Part shown: positions 37,250 through 45,687 of the stretch, one piece after another
How positions within the stretch are numbered: position 1 is the stretch's first letter
Layout of the letters: each line of letters starts with the position of its first letter
NCBI GenBank assembly: GCA_045543375.1
Contig: JAZQMI010000040.1
Location: 1 to 47,536 of the forward strand
Source of the DNA: Eubacteriales bacterium
GTDB taxonomy: Bacteria; Bacillota; Clostridia; Oscillospirales; CAG-272
Direction of reading: 5' to 3'
Length of the DNA stretch: 47,536 bases
Notes under the pieces: model-generated
What the model saw: only the letters and a program-made list of their open reading frames with translations
Database searches by the model: none
What the model was told of the DNA's origin: nothing
Position numbers and translations under genes: made by a program

Positions 37250-37678
37250 ATGAAACAACGTATTCACCGCCCCCGCCGCCCGTGGCGCGAGCGTCTTTAT
37301 TCCTTTATGATCGGTCGCAACGGTGCCGATGCACTCAGCCGCGGACTACTCATGCTGTACCTGATCGTGTGCGTGCTCAATCTGTTTTTGCGTTCCTATA
37401 TCGTCTACGCACTCGGCTACGCCATCATCATCTATTCGCTGTTCCGCATGTTTTCGCGTAATCTGCCCGCTCGGCGACGAGAAAATGCATGGTATTTGCG
37501 CGTCAAAGGGAAAGTCACCGGCTTTTTCAAGCTGCAAAAGAACAAATGGCGCGATCGCAAAACGCACGCCTACCGCAAATGCCCCGCCTGTAAAAGTGTG
37601 CTGCGCTTGCCCAGACAAAAGGGCAAGCACACCGTCAACTGTCCCCGCTGTCACAATCGTTTTCAAGTCAAAATATGA
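37250..37678 (+). CDS. Small membrane protein with C-terminal zinc ribbon
   Basis: FM.GRNG.D.L, two TM segments, FRMFSRN...R..EN, CPAC...CPRC. Confidence 0.8.
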   Translation: MKQRIHRPRRPWRERLYSFMIGRNGADALSRGLLMLYLIVCVLNLFLRSYIVYALGYAIIIYSLFRMFSRNLPARRRENAWYLRVKGKVTGFFKLQKNKWRDRKTHAYRKCPACKSVLRLPRQKGKHTVNCPRCHNRFQVKI

Positions 37679-37720
37679 GAAAATCCCCCCCGCACGGAAT
37701 GTGCGGGCGGGATTTTCGTT
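37679..37720. terminator. Bidirectional terminator
   Basis: GAAAATCCC..CCCGCAC / GTGCGGG.GGGATTTTC between convergent genes. Confidence 0.7.
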
Positions 37721-37726
37721 TATCCG

Positions 37727-40423
37727 TTATCTGTATCTATCCTTTTTTCTCATATAGAAAATAATAACAAGAAGAATGATAATGATGCAGATCAGAAGGA
37801 TCAGCCAGAACAGCCACATGCAGGGACGCTCCGGCTCTTCGGGTACAACAGGCTCACCAGGTTCGTCGGGCGTCTGCGTAGGCTCAAGCTGAGGGATTTC
37901 CTCAGTTCTGCTTGCACTTCCGCAGGTGGTGCAGGTGTAGGTCTTGACACCGGCAGCCTCCTCGGTCGCCTCGACCGTTACCTCACCCTCGTTCCAGGTG
38001 TGCTCAAGCGCGGGAATGACCTCGGTCTTGACGTAAGCACAGACCGAGCAGGTGTAGGTCTTGGTGCCCTCAACGCCGCAAGCTGCCGGCGTGATCTCCT
38101 CTACCCAGGCGTGTGCCTGCTCGCCGATGCGATCTCCACAGCTGCATGCGATCCAGTGGTGCGTGTCGTTGACCGACCACTGAGCCGAGGATACCGTCTG
38201 GTGCGTGTGTTCAAGCACGGGGATCTCCTCCGTCTTGGTCTCGCGGCAAACGGTACAGATATGCGTCAGAACGCCGGGTGTCTGCTCGGTGGCTGCCGTC
38301 GTGACCGTGCCGGCATCCCAGGTGTGATCGCTCAAGGGGATCTCCTCGGTCTTGGTATAGGCGCAGGCGGTACAGGTCAGCTTCATCGTACCCTTGCTCT
38401 CACAGGTTGCTGCAAGCACAACCTCCTGCTCCCAATCGTGTCCGTTCACGTTGGCGCGTTCGCCGCAAAGGCACTCGTACCAATGCTCAGTATCACTATG
38501 CTTCCACGTGTTGATATAAACGTGCACGTGGCTCAACGAGGGGGTCTCCACCGTCTTGGTGTCACCGCAGTCCAGGCAGGTCAGCAGCTTTTCACCGGTA
38601 GAGCTCTCGGTCGCAGGCTTGGTGACGACACCGTCGTCCCACTTGTGCGCGGTGTACTCCCATTCCAGGCAATCCATGCACTGGTGCTTTTGCTCGTTCT
38701 CGTCTACGCTCGACCACTCACCGTAGTTGTGAGGTGCCTTGCTGCCGTACTCGCTGTGACAAGCATCGCAAATTGCCTTTGCCGAACAGGTGGCCTGTCC
38801 ACCGGCATGCTGCTCGCGTCCGTCCGTTGCGTTACAGCCATCGCGCAGACACTCGTAGTAATGGTAGTTGACGTTGGAGGAATACGTCGTTGCGAAATCG
38901 TGACCCAGCTCGGTGCCGTAGCTGAACGTCTCGTCGCCCTTGTGACCGCATGCGCAGCTCTTATAATACAGTGCTGCCTGCGTGCAGTTTGCCTCGGACT
39001 TCAGATATTCGGGCTTAGCGACCTCTTGGTCGTGAACGTGATCGGCAAGCGCACCGTAGGATTGTCCGCAAGCGTCACACACCGCCTGTGCAGAGCAGGT
39101 CGCCTGACCGCCCGCATGCGCGCCGCGACCGTCGGTCACGGTACAGCCGTCACGCAGGCACTCGTAGTAGTGCTCGGTATCGTTGGAGGTGTAAGTCTTG
39201 GAGAAATCGTGACCACGTGCCGTGCCGAACGTAAAGGTTTCGCTCGTTGTCTCACCGCACACGCAGCTCTTGTAATATACGGCCGCGTGCTCGCAATCCG
39301 CAGCACTGACCAGGAAGGCGTCGTCTACGACTTCCTTATAATCGTGAGGCAGCGGAGAGCCGACCGTAAACGTGTTGGTATCTGCCAGACCACAAGCCGA
39401 GCAGCTAAAGTAGTAGCTGGCTGCGTTTTGGCAATCAGCCGCACTTGCCAGATATTCGTCGGCCACGACCTGCGCATCAAACTCGTGAGTCAGCGGCGCA
39501 CCGACCGTGAACGTGTTGGTGTCTGCCAGACCGCAATCCGGGCAGCTGTAATAGTAGGTAGCGGCGTTGTAGCAATCCGCGGCGCTTGCCAGATAGGCTT
39601 CCGTCGCGATTTCGGCGTCAAAGGTGTGAGGCTTGCTCTCTCCGTCGCCGCATCCCGAGCAGACCTTCTCATGCTCGCCCGTTTCTCCGTTCGGAGTCCA
39701 GTTACCGTAATTATGAGGCTCGCTCTCTACGCCGTGGCAGACAGTGCACTCGCGCTCGTGCTTTTGCGAGCCCTTATAGATCCAACCGTCATACTCACCC
39801 ACATAGGTGTGAGGAACCGGTGCAAGCAGCTCACCGCCGCTCGTGTAGGTGTCACAATCGGGGCAATAGATGCCGGCTGCATTGCCCTGCCCCTGGCAGG
39901 TCGAGGGCTCGGCGTCCTTGTAGTAAGCGTTGGCGTGGGGGCAAGTGACGGTCAGCGTTGCCGTCGTCGTGGTCGTGCAGGAAACGGCGGCACCGGTGGC
40001 ATCCTGCAGTCCAGTCATTGCACAACTGATCTGGGTCTGTTCGAGTGCCGCAGTATCCAACACCCTGAAGGTTACCGTCAGAATGGTACCGTTTACATTG
40101 CCGGAAGCGGGAAAACCGTTCATACCGAGGAAAGCAAATACAGCCAATCCGGTAGACGGATCGAAGGATGCCATCATGGTGTTAACGTGAACGGTGCCAC
40201 TCACGGGCTCGAGTACGTTCGGATCGTAAATCATTTCAATTCCACCGGACTTCAGGTCGGGAGCGCCGGAAAGTGTGACCGTAACCGTCACGGTTTCTCC
40301 GCGGCCGGCACCGGTCTTATCAACGCTGACATCAGCCGTTGCCGCAGAGTTGGCAAAGGCAGGAAAAGCCGTCAAAGCAAGCACAAGCATTACGATAACA
40401 CTTGCGAGTAAAAATTTTTTCAT
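37727..40423 (-). CDS. Membrane-anchored cohesin-domain protein with Cys/His-rich repetitive stalk
   Basis: Signal peptide (AFA); cohesin pattern GETVTVTV.L...IYDPNVLE...GTIL.VTF.V.D.A; ~19 H..C/CxxC modules; C-terminal TM plus RKKDRYR. Confidence 0.82.
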   Translation of the reverse strand: MKKFLLASVIVMLVLALTAFPAFANSAATADVSVDKTGAGRGETVTVTVTLSGAPDLKSGGIEMIYDPNVLEPVSGTVHVNTMMASFDPSTGLAVFAFLGMNGFPASGNVNGTILTVTFRVLDTAALEQTQISCAMTGLQDATGAAVSCTTTTTATLTVTCPHANAYYKDAEPSTCQGQGNAAGIYCPDCDTYTSGGELLAPVPHTYVGEYDGWIYKGSQKHERECTVCHGVESEPHNYGNWTPNGETGEHEKVCSGCGDGESKPHTFDAEIATEAYLASAADCYNAATYYYSCPDCGLADTNTFTVGAPLTHEFDAQVVADEYLASAADCQNAASYYFSCSACGLADTNTFTVGSPLPHDYKEVVDDAFLVSAADCEHAAVYYKSCVCGETTSETFTFGTARGHDFSKTYTSNDTEHYYECLRDGCTVTDGRGAHAGGQATCSAQAVCDACGQSYGALADHVHDQEVAKPEYLKSEANCTQAALYYKSCACGHKGDETFSYGTELGHDFATTYSSNVNYHYYECLRDGCNATDGREQHAGGQATCSAKAICDACHSEYGSKAPHNYGEWSSVDENEQKHQCMDCLEWEYTAHKWDDGVVTKPATESSTGEKLLTCLDCGDTKTVETPSLSHVHVYINTWKHSDTEHWYECLCGERANVNGHDWEQEVVLAATCESKGTMKLTCTACAYTKTEEIPLSDHTWDAGTVTTAATEQTPGVLTHICTVCRETKTEEIPVLEHTHQTVSSAQWSVNDTHHWIACSCGDRIGEQAHAWVEEITPAACGVEGTKTYTCSVCAYVKTEVIPALEHTWNEGEVTVEATEEAAGVKTYTCTTCGSASRTEEIPQLEPTQTPDEPGEPVVPEEPERPCMWLFWLILLICIIIILLVIIFYMRKKDRYR

Positions 40424-40470
40424 ATTGGTCTCCTTCGTATATGTTTTTATATCGCACACATTTTAACGCG

Positions 40471-43400
40471 TTACGTCAGCGGATATTGCGCGGGGAAGAA
40501 CGTGTGGAAAAGCAGGTAGATCGCATCGTCCATCGTCACATCGCCATCGCGATCGTAATCACAAGGCTGCTCAACGGGATACTGCGACGGGAAGATGGTA
40601 TAGAACAGCAGATAAATAGCATCTTCCATGCTCACTCCCTCCACGCCGTCGATGTCACCGGGAACGTAGGGCGTGATCTCCACAAACTCTCTGCCGTATT
40701 TCTCGGCGTAAGCCTGTGCGGTCGAGTCGGCGTAGCCGTAGATCACGGCAGTCGCGCTGATGGTATCCTCGGCATCGAAGATATCGACCTCATTCGAACG
40801 GATGGTGATCTTGGTCAAGCCGTCGCAATCGGCAAAAGCAGACTCGTCGATGCTTTCCACAGCCTCACTGATCGTGATCTCCTCAAGAGCATCGCATCCG
40901 TAAAATGCGCCGTATCCGATTGCCGTCACAGCGTCGGGAATCACGATGGAGGTCAGGCAGCTATAGGCAAACGCCGCATCGCCGATCACCGTCACGGTGC
41001 CGTTATTGGGAATCACGCTCGACTGACAACCTGCGATCAGCGTAGCCGTTGCGACTTCGATGATGCAATTCTGGGCGGAGTAGTAAACGGGGTTGCCCGC
41101 TGCTACGGTCAGGGTGGACAAGTTTTGAGCGCAAAGCGCGGCAAGGCCGATGTGGGTAACGCTCTTGGGAAGAGTAAAGGAGGTCAGTCCGGTTTCGAAG
41201 AAGGCACCTTCGCCGATAGAAACGATCGAACCGGGAAGAATGACCTCGGTCAGCTCAGCCAGACCCTCGAACGCGTAATCGCCGATCTCGGTAACGGGCA
41301 AGGTGAAGTAAGTTGCGGGAACGGTAACCTTCGTTTCCGTACCCGTGTAGCCCGTCAGCACGTACGCCGTACCCTGGGCGTTCAGCGCAAATTCCAGACC
41401 GTCAAGTGCTGCAAACGTGCGGTTGTACTTGGTCGCGTATTTCTCTGCGGTCGAACCAAGGTAACCGTAGATTGCCACGCCGGACGGGATGGTATTTTTG
41501 CTGTCCTCCAGAATAACCGTAGAGGAAAGCAGTGTAATACTTTGCAGCGTTACGCCATCGGTAATGGCCGTTGTGGTGGTGGCATTGGTGGGGGCCGCCT
41601 GCATGCCGCGAGGAACAAGAATGTCGGGAGGAAGCTCAACGGTGCCACCGCCGCCCTGCGAGTTGGTCGCAAACGCGCTCTTGGTCACGCGCACAACGGG
41701 AAGGCCGGCATAGACCTCGGGAACGATCACGTGCACGTCCGTGCCCTCGTAGCCCGTGACGCTGTACTGCGTGCCCGCAGCGTTGAGCGTGTAGACGAGG
41801 CCCTCAGTGCCCAGCGTAAGATCGGGCTGCTCGGGTTCGGGTTCGGGCTCGGGCTCCAACGCCTCGAAGACTCTGCCGTTCATTTCAGCGTACGTCTGAG
41901 CCGTTGAGCCCATGTAGCCGTGTATGGTGGCACTTGCCGAAATCGTATTGGCACTTTGATCGATATCCGCATGCGGGGACAAGAACGTGATGCTTTGGAG
42001 CTCGCTACAGAAGAAGGCCATCAGATCGACGCTCTTCACCTTTGCGGGAATGACGATCTCGGTAATGGCAGTAGAGGCGAATGCATTCATTCCGATCACG
42101 TTAAGGCTTTCGGGAAGGGTGACGCTTGCAAGATTCATACAGTTTGCAAATGCGTTGTCTCCGACGTGCGTCACGCCCTCGGGAATGACGACCGATTCGA
42201 TCTCGTAATCTTCGGAAAAAGCAGAGTCGCCAATGGAGGTCACGCTGCCGTCCGCAGGGATCTCAAAACTGCCGTATCCAAGCAGCAACATACCGCTCTT
42301 GTTTTCAATCAGACAGTTGCCGACGACGGTGTATGCCGAGTTTTCAGCGTCGACCGTAAAGCTCGTCAAAAAGTCCATACCCTTAAAGGCCAGTTCACCG
42401 ATCTCGGTCACGCTGGCGGGAAGATGAACGCTTTCGATGCCGCAGCCCGAGAAGGCTCGGATACCAATGCTCTCCACGCCCTCGGGAAGCGTGATCTCAG
42501 TGATCGCGGAATTGCAGAAAAATGCGTAAGCGCCGATGCGCTTGATGCTTCCGTCCGTCGGAATCACGCAGTCGGGCGTGCCCAGAAGCAGCGTTTGGCT
42601 GTCCAGCTCGATCAGGCAACCGTCCGTGACGGCGTAGGCGGTATTGCCCTCAGCCACCGTCAAGGTTGTCAGCTCCTTGCAGGCATAGAAGGCGCCCTCT
42701 GCAATCTTGACGACACCGCTCGGGATCTCAACGCTTTCGAGCCCGTAGCAGGAATCAAACGCGTAGCAAAGAATGATCCGAGTATCCTCGTGAATCGTAA
42801 GGGAACCGGTCACCTCCGCGGGGGCCAACACCAACGCATGGTACGGATTTGATTCGTTTCCAAGATACAGCGAGCCCTCATAAGTATGGAAGCCCAACGA
42901 CGCGCAATCGTCAAACGCATGCTCCTCAATGTCCGTCATGGTGTTGGGGATCGAGATATCCGTCAGTGCTTCACAGCCGCAGAAGGCATATGCGCCGATG
43001 GACGTCACGCCCTCGGGGATCACAAGGGAAGACAACTGATCGCAGCTGTAGAAGGCATACGCGCCAATGCTCTTGACGCTGCCCGGAATTTCAACACTTT
43101 CAACGTTGGAAATGCTGAAAGCCCAATCGTCGATGGCCGTTACGGGCAGGTCCTGATAAGTAGCGGGAATGACAAGCTCGGTCAAGGAACCGTAATAGCT
43201 CTTGACGACGTAGCTCTGCTCGTCGTCACCGAGCACGTAGGCGATGCCCTGCTCGTCGGTCAATATCTCCTCCTGCTCGGGCGGTGCGGGCGTATCCCCG
43301 GCGTTTCCGCCCTCTCCTTGATCGGGAGCGGTACCGGTATTATCGTTCGCGCCAGCATCACCCTCGGGGGTATCCTGCGCGTTGCCCGGAGGTGTCGGAG

Positions 43401-43533
43401 CAACGGGTTGCGTTGTGTCGTTCGCGTCGGGCTGTGTGTCCTGGGCGCTGACACCAAGTGTAAGGCTTGAGGTAAGTAGCAATGCAAGCGCCAAAAGGAC
43501 GCTACAGAGCTTTCGGCTATTTCTGCTTTTCAT
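40471..43533 (-). CDS. Secreted BspA-type leucine-rich repeat protein with C-terminal dockerin
   Basis: Signal peptide; many IP.xVTxIGxxAF repeats; C-terminal duplicated GDIDG..GVSMEDAIYLL / DYDRDGDVTMDDAIYLL. Confidence 0.88.
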   Translation of the reverse strand: MKSRNSRKLCSVLLALALLLTSSLTLGVSAQDTQPDANDTTQPVAPTPPGNAQDTPEGDAGANDNTGTAPDQGEGGNAGDTPAPPEQEEILTDEQGIAYVLGDDEQSYVVKSYYGSLTELVIPATYQDLPVTAIDDWAFSISNVESVEIPGSVKSIGAYAFYSCDQLSSLVIPEGVTSIGAYAFCGCEALTDISIPNTMTDIEEHAFDDCASLGFHTYEGSLYLGNESNPYHALVLAPAEVTGSLTIHEDTRIILCYAFDSCYGLESVEIPSGVVKIAEGAFYACKELTTLTVAEGNTAYAVTDGCLIELDSQTLLLGTPDCVIPTDGSIKRIGAYAFFCNSAITEITLPEGVESIGIRAFSGCGIESVHLPASVTEIGELAFKGMDFLTSFTVDAENSAYTVVGNCLIENKSGMLLLGYGSFEIPADGSVTSIGDSAFSEDYEIESVVIPEGVTHVGDNAFANCMNLASVTLPESLNVIGMNAFASTAITEIVIPAKVKSVDLMAFFCSELQSITFLSPHADIDQSANTISASATIHGYMGSTAQTYAEMNGRVFEALEPEPEPEPEQPDLTLGTEGLVYTLNAAGTQYSVTGYEGTDVHVIVPEVYAGLPVVRVTKSAFATNSQGGGGTVELPPDILVPRGMQAAPTNATTTTAITDGVTLQSITLLSSTVILEDSKNTIPSGVAIYGYLGSTAEKYATKYNRTFAALDGLEFALNAQGTAYVLTGYTGTETKVTVPATYFTLPVTEIGDYAFEGLAELTEVILPGSIVSIGEGAFFETGLTSFTLPKSVTHIGLAALCAQNLSTLTVAAGNPVYYSAQNCIIEVATATLIAGCQSSVIPNNGTVTVIGDAAFAYSCLTSIVIPDAVTAIGYGAFYGCDALEEITISEAVESIDESAFADCDGLTKITIRSNEVDIFDAEDTISATAVIYGYADSTAQAYAEKYGREFVEITPYVPGDIDGVEGVSMEDAIYLLFYTIFPSQYPVEQPCDYDRDGDVTMDDAIYLLFHTFFPAQYPLT

Positions 43534-43577
43534 ATCTTTGCCTTTCCTTTCCGTGGTTATATAGTTATACAAATTAT

Positions 43578-43606
43578 ATTATAGCATAGCGCTGCCGCTT
43601 TGTCAA
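43578..43606 (-). promoter_or_regulatory. Consensus sigma-A promoter of LRR-dockerin/cohesin operon
   Basis: Minus strand TTGACA-N17-TATAAT with TG. Confidence 0.85.
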
Positions 43607-43813
43607 CCGCGATTTGCACGGTCGGAAAATTTGTTTTCAGAAAATTCGCAGCCCAAAAATATAACAAAAAGTAGGAATATTATCTTAATTTTGTTTTATT
43701 TTGCATGCACATCACATATGAAATCGTCGCTTACATCACGCACTTCCGTCGGTGTTGTGCACAAAGCACGGTGAAAAAAGCAGTTTTGTTTTGATTTTTT
43801 GTATATTTTAGAC

Positions 43814-43853
43814 TTGACAAAGCATATCTTGATATGGTATAATGTGTTATAAT
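43814..43853 (+). promoter_or_regulatory. Strong sigma-A promoter(s) pointing into an ORF-less region
   Basis: TTGACA-N18-TATAAT with TG, plus second TG-n-TATAAT at 43845-43853. Confidence 0.7.
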
Positions 43854-43859
43854 GAAAAA

Positions 43860-44245
43860 CTCGTAAATGCGACTTTTTTAATCTATTGCGTTTTCACGTG
43901 ACGCATAAATTTCAGTCGTCCGCCCGTGGCGGACACCTTCAAAGCAGAAGTTCACGCAGCGAAGCACCCGATCCTCGGAACACGGACTTGCAACACCGTG
44001 CTCCGCGCAGGGCATCAGAACCCAAGACCTTACGGTGCTACCGTTCGGGCAGATGGCAACCAAGGGACGGATTTGCGCACGCGCAAGCCGATGATAAGAC
44101 TTATCTCCTTCTCATCATCGGACCGTGCTTCGCTTGAGCTTATTTGTCTGCCGCTCCGTGCATACCCTCCATTTTCTGCACGGAGTAACGGCAAATCATA
44201 CATCAAAACAAGCGGCGACGTCAGACGACGTCGCCGCTTGTTTTT
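43860..44245. ncRNA. Candidate structured non-coding RNA, family unassigned
   Basis: At least seven stems incl. long-range AGCGAAGCAC/GTGCTTCGCT; lies between a promoter and a terminator; no ORF with a usable RBS. Confidence 0.5.
44205..44245. terminator. Bidirectional intrinsic terminator
   Basis: AAAACAAGCGGCGACGTC / GACGTCGCCGCTTGTTTT. Confidence 0.88.
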
Positions 44246-44247
44246 CG

Positions 44248-45687
44248 TTACAAAATCATTTGCTCTTGCCCACGCTCAAGCTTTTTCTTGACAATGGCGA
44301 CCATAATAAAATGTGCCGTCAAGGTAATGATCCAAGAAACGGGGTAAGACAGGAACAGGCACTCGATGGTGTGCCACTTTTGGAAGATGGTCAGGATCCA
44401 CACCACGCGCAAAGCGCATGCACCCGTCAGAGAGATCATCATGGGCATAAAGGTCTTGCCCATGCCGCGCAGCACGCCGCAGCCGACCTCCATGATGCCG
44501 CACAGGAAATAAGTCGTGACGATGATGCTCATACGCAGCATGCCGTAGTCGATGGCAGCGCTCTCATCGACGAAAAAGCCGAGAAGCGGGCGACCGAAGA
44601 TGAGCACGATGGCACCCATAGCAGCGCCTGCCGCCACGGTCAGCCCGATGCAAGAGAAAATAACGCGATTGATGCGTTCGAATTTGCGCGCACCGACGTG
44701 CTGACCGACAAAGGTGATAGCCCCTTGGTAAGCCGCGTTTTGCGCGGTGTAGACGAAGCCCTCCACGTTGCTCGCAGCAGCGCTGCCGTTGACCAGTGCC
44801 TCAACGCCGAACGACTGGATCGAGGACTGAATGAGCACGTTGGAAAAGCTGAACAGCACGCCCTGAACACCTGCGGGGATACCGATCTTGAGCATGAGTG
44901 CAACCTTTTCGCGCTTGATGGTCAGATGGCGCAGCGAAAGGCGGCAGGAATCCTTGACGAAGAAGGTCATGTAGACGACCGTCATGATGGCGGCCAGATA
45001 CTGCGATGCTGCCGTGGCGATGCCCACGCCCACAGCACCCATGCCAAAGCCAATGACCATCCAAAGGTTCAGCAGCACGTTGGCAAGTCCCGAGATACCG
45101 AGAAAGATGAGCGGACGCACCGAGTCACCCTTGGCGCGCAGCGCCGCAGCGCAATAGTTATACACCATGATGCCGGGCACACCGACCATATAGGCCTTGA
45201 TATAGGGCACCGCCTCGACCATGATACCGTCGAGCGTTCCCATCATGCGCAGTGCCGGCTCGGATATGAAAAAGCCCAGAACGCCGACCGCCACGCCCAT
45301 GATCAGCGACAGCGAAAAGGCGGTATGTACGACGTCGGAAACGTCTCGGTCGCGCTTGGCACCCGTGTACTGCGCCACGCTGACGCTGACGCCCGTGGCA
45401 AGTCCGATGAACAGGTTAACGATGAGGTTGATGAGCGAGCCACACGAGCCGACCGCTCCCACGGCCGTATCGGTGGCAAACTGCCCGAGCACGATCATGT
45501 CGGTGGCGTTATATAACAGCTGCAGCATGCTTGAGAGCATGAGTGGCAGGCAAAATGCGATCAACTGCGGCAAAATAGGACCTACGGTCAGATCCTTTTT
45601 GGGCTTGCTTCGATAGGTTCTGTGCCGACGGTGGAGCGAGGCCATGGCCGACGGCGGTCCAAAATGAAAGGGTGCGCTTCTTTTCAT
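44248..45687 (-). CDS. MATE family efflux transporter
   Basis: DLT.GPI, LQLLYN..D..VLG, LRAKGDS.RPL, VGQ.VGA, G.LRGMG; 12 TM pattern. Confidence 0.95.
   Translation of the reverse strand: MKRSAPFHFGPPSAMASLHRRHRTYRSKPKKDLTVGPILPQLIAFCLPLMLSSMLQLLYNATDMIVLGQFATDTAVGAVGSCGSLINLIVNLFIGLATGVSVSVAQYTGAKRDRDVSDVVHTAFSLSLIMGVAVGVLGFFISEPALRMMGTLDGIMVEAVPYIKAYMVGVPGIMVYNYCAAALRAKGDSVRPLIFLGISGLANVLLNLWMVIGFGMGAVGVGIATAASQYLAAIMTVVYMTFFVKDSCRLSLRHLTIKREKVALMLKIGIPAGVQGVLFSFSNVLIQSSIQSFGVEALVNGSAAASNVEGFVYTAQNAAYQGAITFVGQHVGARKFERINRVIFSCIGLTVAAGAAMGAIVLIFGRPLLGFFVDESAAIDYGMLRMSIIVTTYFLCGIMEVGCGVLRGMGKTFMPMMISLTGACALRVVWILTIFQKWHTIECLFLSYPVSWIITLTAHFIMVAIVKKKLERGQEQMIL

Follow-up and report, generated by a model that had tools for sequence, protein, structure and literature searches.

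We analysed a 47,536-nucleotide stretch of DNA (hereafter the window; contig JAZQMI010000040.1 of assembly GCA_045543375.1, forward strand) from a Eubacteriales bacterium of the order Oscillospirales. On the minus strand of the window lie two adjacent genes that are likely to constitute a self-contained surface-display cassette, in which a leucine-rich repeat (LRR) protein tagged with a dockerin is docked on a membrane-anchored cohesin stalk. Gene 1 encodes a secreted LRR protein ending in a duplicated, dockerin-like tail, and gene 2 encodes a type-I membrane protein that begins with a cohesin. Profile scans of the genome (1.8 Mb in 130 contigs, 81% complete) found one cohesin and one such tail, and these are the two encoded here. 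The same succession of a tail gene and a membrane-anchored cohesin gene recurs in other families of the order.

The C-terminal tail of gene 1 is a predicted divergent dockerin

The tail consists of 65 amino acids with an internal duplication, and the motif DAIYLLF.T.FP.QYP is present twice in it, exactly as a first-pass annotation of the DNA had described. The same annotation called the tail a dockerin. We aligned ten tails, that of the window and those of nine relatives (P0002–P0010), and compared the resulting profile (A1) with the sequences of the PDB. At E < 1, the profile matched 22 sequences, 21 of which are dockerins or dockerin-bearing cellulases; the best matches were 2y3n_B (E = 4.9e-6) and 3ul4_B (E = 2.2e-5), and the alignment spans both loop-helix repeats. 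Because A1 matches solved dockerins across both repeats, we regard the tail as a divergent dockerin, predicted from profile homology together with the motif. The assignment thus stands on the family profile and not on the Pfam dockerin family PF00404, which the annotation had named as the check and which does not match the tail.

Canonical dockerin calcium loops follow a 12-residue EF-hand-like pattern, in which the fifth position is usually Asp or Asn. The second loop of the tail, DYDRDGDVTMDD, fits this pattern, and the two halves of the tail are identical at 17 of 29 positions. When the single tail was searched against the PDB sequences, three matches were obtained, all of them dockerins and all weak (E = 0.13–0.86). 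In an AlphaFold model built from 23 sequences, helices 18–29 and 50–61 follow the loops as expected. Relatives were scanned with Pfam in a set of 64 tail proteins, drawn from 154 stored proteins with a C-terminal motif, a length of 300–1350 aa and a methionine start (P0001 and P0002 were left out, and the selection ended at 49,500 residues). PF00404 matched 17 of these 64 at E ≤ 1e-3, and in 15 of them the match lay on the tail itself.

Several results speak against a dockerin. PF00404 gave no match in gene 1 at E ≤ 0.1 (cut-off 22.9 bits) and no match at the position of the tail when the whole genome was scanned, and 75 aa of tail searched alone against Pfam matched no family at E ≤ 10. Among the 64 relatives, just five reached the PF00404 cut-off on the tail. 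The first calcium loop, DIDGVEGVSMED, has Val at the fifth position. The tail model was mediocre, with a predicted local distance difference test score (pLDDT) of 72, and when it was compared with the PDB using Foldseek, dockerins led the list (8 of the 10 best rows, with template-modelling scores of 0.33–0.4 for the dockerin rows) at E-values of 0.8–3.3, which are not significant. A wide VIA-align search with the same model returned nothing above Z 3. The sole PF00404 match in the genome (C58, E = 0.033) was dismissed, as it falls on the strand opposite a genuine surface-protein gene.

The tail defines a large subfamily with cargo other than carbohydrate-active enzymes

Among 1.84 billion cluster representatives (clusters at 50% identity), the A1 profile matched 6,071 at E ≤ 1e-3, 2,799 at E ≤ 1e-10 and 24 at E ≤ 1e-30. 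Two DAIYLL-like motifs were found in 122 of the 150 representatives listed, and the last motif lay at most 25 residues from the C-terminus in 107 of the 150. Ninety-nine tail proteins among the representatives listed had a methionine start and at least 300 aa; a signal-peptide-like start was present in 72 of these 99, and three or more CxxC motifs in 34.

In the set of 64 tail proteins, the cargo was LRR_5 in 34, a cohesin (E ≤ 1e-3) in 10, CHAP in three and a transglutaminase-like domain in three, with Amidase_3, Big_3, Flg_new, Ricin-B, C-type lectin, CARDB and DUF285 among the further families. In none of the 64 did Pfam detect a glycoside hydrolase, lyase or esterase family. Since LRR_5 occurs in 34 of the 64 and no family of carbohydrate-active enzymes (CAZymes) in any, the combination of LRR and tail is, judged by domain content, the commonest architecture of a large non-CAZyme dockerin family. 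The first-pass annotation had suggested that the tail forms a specificity class of its own; this was upheld at the level of sequence and not beyond it, where the tails make up a recognisably distinct subfamily of predicted dockerins. Thousands of its members fall under the Pfam threshold, which leaves a gap in annotation, and the numbers of dockerin proteins reported for rumen and gut genomes are therefore probably too low.

The neighbouring cohesin is the most likely partner of the tail

The N-terminal domain of gene 2 is a cohesin. PF00963 matched it at E = 1.2e-10 (42.1 bits against a cut-off of 24.1; profile positions 3–136 of 139) and at 46.8 bits in the genome scan, and the match at 39956–40330 agrees with the ~39945–40340 proposed by the first-pass annotation. 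In a phmmer search of the PDB, the domain matched cohesins of A. cellulolyticus ScaB and C. thermocellum CipA. The model of gene 2, made from a two-sequence alignment, has beta strands over residues 29–156 (pLDDT 50–66).

The dockerin and cohesin modules are only 47 nt plus a signal peptide apart within one predicted transcription unit. The number of proteins with this dockerin type in the genome, a count that the first-pass annotation had put forward, is one, and its cargo is LRR_5. Neither a scaffoldin with two or more cohesins nor a dockerin-bearing CAZyme was found in the 81%-complete genome, and by these counts the pair does not qualify as a cellulosome or amylosome.

We then searched 400 other genomes of the same order for the tail at E ≤ 1e-15. 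It was present in 20 of them and in 14 of 178 genera (the window genome counted), as a single copy in nine. Ten low-copy genomes were searched for a cohesin, and all ten were positive. In three of these, which belong to three different families (G073, G139 and G289), the tail gene is followed directly by a gene encoding a signal peptide, a cohesin, 4–7 CxxC motifs and, at the C-terminus, a transmembrane helix with a basic tail, as in the window. Cohesin and tail are part of one open reading frame (ORF) in G169, G175 and G052, and also in G139, and they lie 1.9 kb apart on one strand in G104; in the remaining three (G071, G101 and G138) they are on different contigs. Thus, in seven of the ten low-copy genomes, the cohesin is within the tail ORF or at most 2 kb away on the same strand. 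Rosetta-stone fusions, in which a cohesin is directly followed by the tail, were also seen in P0004, P0006, P0007, P0025, P0038, P0043, P0059 and P0092, among others. Gene 2 is homologous to its G073 counterpart, with 29% identity (E = 5e-27) in the stalk and 24% identity (E = 1e-17) in the cohesin.

Other comparisons weaken the case for this particular pairing. The gene 2 cohesin is just 24–28% identical to other cohesins of the system, and BLASTP detected no significant similarity between it and the cohesin of G139. Pfam cohesins (E ≤ 1e-5) were found in 17 of the 20 tail-positive and 163 of the 380 tail-negative genomes, related genomes among these not being independent; because cohesins are very common in the order (180 of the 400 genomes at the same threshold, and 94 of 178 genera with the window genome counted), their co-occurrence with the tail is weak evidence. 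Furthermore, proteins in which cohesin and tail are fused show that such a tail can act in self-assembly or as an adaptor as well, and a partner other than the adjacent cohesin is therefore conceivable. On the combined evidence of the fusions, the adjacency of the genes and the one-to-one count, the neighbouring cohesin is nevertheless the most likely partner of the tail. The cohesin-dockerin pairing claimed in the first-pass annotation is therefore supported by comparative genomics, through the one-to-one count, the recurrent gene order and the fusions, and it is from these that we infer binding. The annotation had also spoken of a modular plug-and-socket system. Here there is one socket and one plug, and modularity, in the form of 13–25 tail proteins per genome, is found only in other genomes.

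Metagenome-assembled genomes (MAGs) with these 13–25 tail proteins also hold cohesin proteins with a transmembrane anchor (L050, L051, L052, L054 and L076) and multi-cohesin ORFs. In a Ruminococcus MAG (L023, 2627–5555), a CHAP-CxxC-cohesin-tail gene is followed after 16 nt by a gene whose product, composed of a signal peptide, a pair of cohesins and a conventional dockerin, looks like an adaptor that would join FPxxYP-dockerins to an ordinary cohesin-dockerin system. A 281-aa single-cohesin protein (L081, G101:C11) carries a sortase signal at its end (LPGTG, a hydrophobic stretch, then RRKR) in place of the plain transmembrane helix of its counterparts; by this comparison, the anchors of the cohesins are interchangeable. 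The frequency of cohesins in the order was far above that expected from known cellulosome producers.

Features of the operon and its two products

According to its sequence signals, the pair forms one transcription unit with a single promoter, a 47-nt gap and a terminator, and the promoter scan, ORF positions and hairpin folding all bear out the first-pass annotation on this point (Table 1). Both genes have good ribosome-binding sites, GGAAAGG preceding the likely ATG of gene 1. A consensus scan found no further minus-strand promoter-like site between the two genes. The terminator hairpin was found by folding (−31.5 kcal/mol, z = −6.3; none of 200 shuffles was as good) and was not picked up by a consensus terminator scan, in which terminator-like matches within genes occurred at the level of chance (7 found, 7.1 expected). 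Short contigs from an RNA library (X20) match both genes, with carry-over of DNA as a possible source.

Table 1. Coordinates of the operon and associated features in the window
Feature	Position	Strand	Basis or remarks
Promoter, sigma-70 type, TTGACA-17-TGnTATAAT	43578..43606	−	12/12 consensus matches, TG extension
Gene 1, LRR_5 (BspA-type) protein, 1020 aa	40471..43533, stop included	−	ORF 40471–43572, likely ATG at 43533
Gene 1 signal peptide, residues 1–30, ...GVSA|QD	43444..43533	−	by eye from sequence
LRR_5 repeat region, three blocks with short linkers between	40789..43188	−	Pfam stretches
Dockerin-like tail, two loop-helix segments, each ending DAIYLLF.T.FP.QYP	40474..40674	−	A1 profile match, E = 2.5e-39
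Intergenic gap, 47 nt from stop to ATG, with gene 2 ribosome-binding site GAAGGAGA	40424..40470	−	
Gene 2, type-I membrane protein, 898 aa	37727..40423, stop included	−	ORF 37727–40459 (910 aa), likely ATG at 40423
Gene 2 signal peptide, residues 1–24, ...PAFA|NS	40352..40423	−	by eye; helix 2–18 in model
Cohesin domain	39956..40330	−	PF00963, residues 44–168 of the 910-aa ORF
Stalk, residues ~161–845 (~685 aa), 17 Cys/His modules	37889..39943	−	sequence
C-terminal transmembrane helix, then basic tail MRKKDRYR	37754..37822	−	sequence; helix 869–897, pLDDT ~84
Intrinsic terminator hairpin, then U-rich run UUUUCUCAUAUUUU	~37679..37717	−	directly behind gene 2 stop
Segment without counterpart in the two closest congeners, ~6.6 kb	37675..44304	.	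genome comparison

The product of gene 1 proved to be a BspA-type LRR protein, as first proposed, with multiple copies of LRR_5 (PF13306; E = 2.8e-107, 354 bits against a cut-off of 27.7, in six stretches). Seven LRR_5 stretches at E ≤ 1e-5 were recorded for it in the genome profile scan. PF13306 and PF00963, two of the families named for checking in the first-pass annotation, are thus both above cut-off. A Pro/Thr/Asp/Gly-rich linker of low complexity follows the signal peptide and extends to about residue 100. The protein also scored 162.7 bits against NF047961, the family of the streptococcal LRR adhesin HupY/LrrG, for which the equivalog cut-off is 1250 bits, and the likeness to HupY/LrrG is, as far as these scores go, at the repeat level only. 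Neither gene product contains a CAZyme family by Pfam, in line with the initial annotation, and neither carries an LPXTG signal or S-layer homology (SLH) repeats by Pfam and inspection. Signal peptides and the transmembrane helix were read from the sequence without a dedicated predictor.

Further LRR_5 proteins of this genome carry the anchor in their own chain. Two (C34, 7154–12940; C32, 28491–30188) have a C-terminal transmembrane helix with a basic tail, and two (C19, 19697–21823; C91, 31–843) have a lipoprotein-type Cys after the signal peptide. Gene 1 is the only LRR_5 protein in this genome with a dockerin-type tail, and the window pair looks like a two-piece version of the LRR anchoring that is achieved elsewhere in one chain.

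In gene 2, the signal peptide, long stalk and C-terminal transmembrane helix that had been annotated were all seen in the sequence, and the helix also in the model. Each module of the stalk has a C-x(1,2)-C motif, with a Cys or His at most ~25 residues upstream (often ~10). A downstream His, mostly at 12–18 residues, is present in 16 of the 17 modules, the exception being the last (residue 831). The whole 898-aa protein contains 52 Cys and 37 His. No Pfam family matched the stalk, and in the ESM Atlas its best score was 0.89, to no named family, with weak zinc-finger or zinc-ribbon neighbours at 0.83–0.85. The four-ligand spacing suggests that the modules are metal (zinc) knuckles. DNA repeats D2–D4 were found in the stalk region, and a Pro/Glu-rich spacer separates the stalk from the transmembrane helix. 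The full-length model (mean pLDDT 37) was most confident at helix 869–897; at a stalk pLDDT of ~22, it was unusable as a guide to the stalk fold. With neither LPXTG nor an SLH match, gene 2 is not a sortase- or SLH-anchored scaffoldin of the ScaE/OlpB type.

A tandem Cys/His module of ~35–47 aa also occurs in P0005, P0008, P0147, L054, L076, L090 and L092. Its recurrent pattern is C or H, C-x(1,2)-C and H, often as ...CT..G...Y.C..CG...., and it has no Pfam family. The module may be a metal-binding repeat outside the cell. Stalks of this uncharacterised extracellular kind occur in many secreted Clostridia proteins of the system.

Proposed mechanism and alternative explanations

In the display cassette that we propose, both proteins would be exported by Sec. 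The product of gene 2 would be kept in the membrane by its C-terminal helix, with the N-terminus outside and the basic tail inside the cell, and its stalk of ~685 residues, the 17 Cys/His modules of which are probably stabilised by metal, would span the wall and hold the single N-terminal cohesin away from the membrane. The product of gene 1, which has no anchor of its own, would be captured non-covalently through binding of its C-terminal dockerin to this cohesin, probably with Ca2+. Its BspA-type LRR domains would thereby be displayed on the outside of the cell, where they would serve as a binding (adhesin) module.

The modules might be real without being mutual partners: the dockerin might plug into cohesins of foreign cells or species of the rumen or gut community, or the cohesin might take up dockerins of its neighbours, with the two genes being co-transcribed as mere co-travellers. 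Foreign partners abound in that habitat, as judged from the cohesins in 180 of 400 genomes of the order and the 2,799 tail clusters; the operon is an indel relative to congeners; and the fusions of cohesin and tail show that a partner may be some other molecule. We nevertheless consider such cross-docking unlikely, as the recurrence of the tail-cohesin gene order in several families and the one-to-one count are explained most simply by a cognate pair. Cohesin-dockerin specificity is, moreover, usually species-restricted in known systems. Rather improbable, in our judgement, is a tail that does not work as a dockerin at all and is instead a calcium-binding or structural domain or a sorting tag. 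Gene 1 would then be released or held otherwise, and the cohesin-like Ig domain of gene 2 would be an adhesin tip. Such a tail would fit the missing PF00404 match, the degenerate first loop and the non-significant structure searches, as well as the location of the last motif near the C-terminus in 107 of the 150 representatives listed, as in sorting tags. Against this stand a profile whose matches are almost exclusively dockerins covered over both repeats, the 15 of 64 relatives in which PF00404 matches the tail at E ≤ 1e-3, and the persistent linkage or fusion of the tail to cohesins; we also know of no C-terminal sorting signal with a duplicated EF-hand-like loop-helix.

A further possibility arises from the near-symmetry of the tail, with its 17 of 29 identical positions. 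The dockerin could bind in two orientations or bridge two stalks, or gene 1 could oligomerise, and the outcome would be clustering or a lattice instead of simple display. Symmetric dockerins have been linked to a dual binding mode in the literature, and the group 4 dockerins of Ruminococcus flavefaciens, which are symmetric, were proposed to structure the cell surface in the available text of PMC2930009. A single cohesin per stalk and a single dockerin per LRR protein argue against a lattice, which we judge very improbable. We therefore retain display of the LRR protein on the cohesin stalk as the working explanation.

Relation to known cohesin-dockerin systems

Each element of the cassette, namely an LRR-dockerin protein, a cohesin with a transmembrane anchor and a one-cohesin/one-dockerin pair, has precedent in print. 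As described in the available text of PMC2930009 (2010), 28 LRR modules occur in dockerin proteins of R. flavefaciens FD-1, and the internally symmetric group 4 dockerins of this strain carry LRR, transglutaminase or cohesin cargo, for which a non-cellulosomal, surface-structuring role was suggested. By that description, group 4 and the tail subfamily are alike in cargo (LRR, transglutaminase-like, peptidases and cohesins) and in repeat symmetry; unlike the window pair, group 4 is part of a 200-dockerin cellulosome and docks on sortase-anchored ScaE. No group 4 dockerin entry was among the PDB matches of A1.

In Ruminococcus bromii, according to the available text of PMC4611034 (2015), an LRR-dockerin protein binds all four cohesins, including that of sortase-anchored Sca2, and Amy4, which has both a cohesin and a dockerin, binds itself; LRRs, it is proposed there, may mediate protein-protein or host interactions. 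This amylosome shares with the window pair a dockerin-tagged LRR protein on a cell-anchored single cohesin. As far as that text goes, Sca2 is predicted to be sortase-linked to the wall and also binds amylases, within a set of four cohesin proteins and many dockerins, whereas the window pair has a transmembrane anchor, a 1:1 composition and no glycoside hydrolase family 13 (GH13) in the operon. The ClcC/ClcD pair of Cellulosilyticum lentocellum, the sole cohesin and the sole dockerin of that genome, is encoded by adjacent genes and was shown experimentally to form a heterodimer (available text of PMC13487519, 2026). In these respects, the two pairs are similar by description. ClcC/ClcD enhances cellulase activity and so belongs to a CAZyme context, whereas the window pair has LRR cargo, no CAZyme domain, a Cys/His stalk and a transmembrane anchor.

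Monovalent cohesins with a predicted transmembrane anchor have been listed for H. luporum, C. cibarium and Lachnoclostridium MSJ-17 (PMC11557425, 2024) and for R. difficilis, HUN007, JE7B6 and zg921/zg924 (PMC13463774, 2026), and the scaffoldins of R. difficilis carry adhesion-type domains including LRR (PMC13463774). In the survey text that was available, these scaffoldins share with gene 2 the single cohesin as well as a transmembrane helix at the C-terminus, proposed as the membrane anchor for dockerin proteins. They come from genomes with 15–80 dockerin proteins, in which partners are mostly unassigned, whereas in the window the operon indicates the partner. A stalk of Cys/His repeats is not described in the available text of either survey. 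The classical cellulosome (C. thermocellum type) has in common with the window pair the plug-and-socket principle and a dockerin of two calcium-loop/helix repeats; unlike it, the window genome has no multi-cohesin scaffoldin, carbohydrate-binding module, SLH or sortase anchor, or dockerin-bearing CAZyme.

Our literature search, which covered the surveys without their supplements, where such proteins may be listed, found no description of dedicated LRR cargo, a transmembrane anchor and a Cys/His stalk in one cassette, of the size and cargo profile of the DAIYLLFYTFFPxxYP subfamily, or of the recurrent order of tail gene and cohesin gene. A search on dockerin together with BspA gave nothing on this arrangement.

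Tentatively, the window may hold, in its minimal form, an 'adhesosome' that is widespread among Oscillospirales of the rumen and gut and as yet unclassified, a wider picture that we consider possible though doubtful as a whole. A distinct dockerin subfamily (DAIYLLFYTFFPxxYP; at least 2,799 clusters at 50% identity, largely invisible to Pfam) would tag LRR adhesins, peptidoglycan hydrolases, transglutaminase-like proteins and lectins, and not CAZymes, for cognate cohesins on membrane-anchored stalks of a new extracellular Cys/His (probably zinc) repeat. Plug and socket genes would travel as one transferable cassette, with the interacting modules adjacent in the DNA. If the pair of the window binds, it would be a natural minimal cohesin-dockerin module dedicated to the display of a binding protein, with no link to CAZymes, and a useful orthogonal plug-and-socket for protein display. 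It would also imply that, in gut Clostridia, adhesion and the organisation of the surface are at least as important a use of cohesin-dockerin systems as the digestion of fibre.

Genomic context and variation

The operon is flanked by housekeeping genes, which encode a MATE transporter, an Rce1-like protease, methylglyoxal synthase, a glycyl-radical enzyme with its activase and a tRNA ligase. In the two nearest congeners (MATE 72–77% identical), the MATE gene directly abuts a gene for a 142-aa zinc-ribbon protein, which is followed by the methylglyoxal synthase gene. The tail was absent from all 12 genomes of the genus, apart from one weak match at 4.5e-4. By this comparison, the operon is an indel of 6.6 kb, and a gain is the simplest account of it. 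The segment has neither direct nor inverted repeats at its flanks, and no mobile-element mechanism was identified for it; the G+C content of the operon shows no clear departure.

At least four studies of the bovine gut yielded metagenomes that contain the operon, with half of the sampled words, or nearly half, matched. An independent bovine-gut contig of 13,274 nt covers the whole operon; it differs by 216 substitutions and by four single-base indels, which offset one another in pairs, a pattern consistent with selection for the reading frames. Scanning metagenome contigs with gene 2 gave 18 pattern matches, none of which was confirmed. A word-based homolog search with the gene 2 cohesin returned the domain itself and one ortholog (P0156), which has the same architecture as gene 2 and is uniformly ~57% identical to it.

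One relative of gene 1 (P0001) is 98% identical, and 99% in the tail region. A second relative (P0002) is 95–100% identical over most of residues 1–680 (0.90 in one 40-residue window), 0.88 over 681–720, 53–75% over 721–960, which is the third LRR block, and 88–90% in the dockerin. P0002 is a mosaic allele, and its pattern suggests recombination or diversification in one LRR binding block. In run X1, two long contigs match the window on either side, their matches ending at 39571 and 40637. Between these points lie the cohesin, the initial modules of the stalk and the greater part of the dockerin; a divergent allele of precisely the interacting parts may be the cause, or else an effect of the assembly. 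Joint swapping of cohesin and dockerin between strains was considered and is unsupported, given the 88–90% conservation of the P0002 dockerin and the uniform ~57% of P0156; the X1 contigs were rejected as evidence for it, as no contig joins across 39571–40637.

Three minor features lie beside the operon. The AT-rich 675-nt spacer upstream contains a second perfect promoter, TTGACA-18-TATAAT with TG, at 43814–43843 on the plus strand, which faces the 3' end of the MATE gene and has no obvious ORF behind it. A perfect 18-nt inverted repeat with a 4-nt loop at 44205–44244, just downstream of the MATE stop (44248), is probably the terminator of the MATE gene. At the other end, a plus-strand ORF of 142 aa (37250–37678), convergent on the operon terminator, has hydrophobic segments and a zinc-ribbon-like C-terminal end (CPxC...CPRC). 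It gave no match in a Pfam scan, and it adjoins the methylglyoxal synthase gene in the congeners too, at 63–69% identity.

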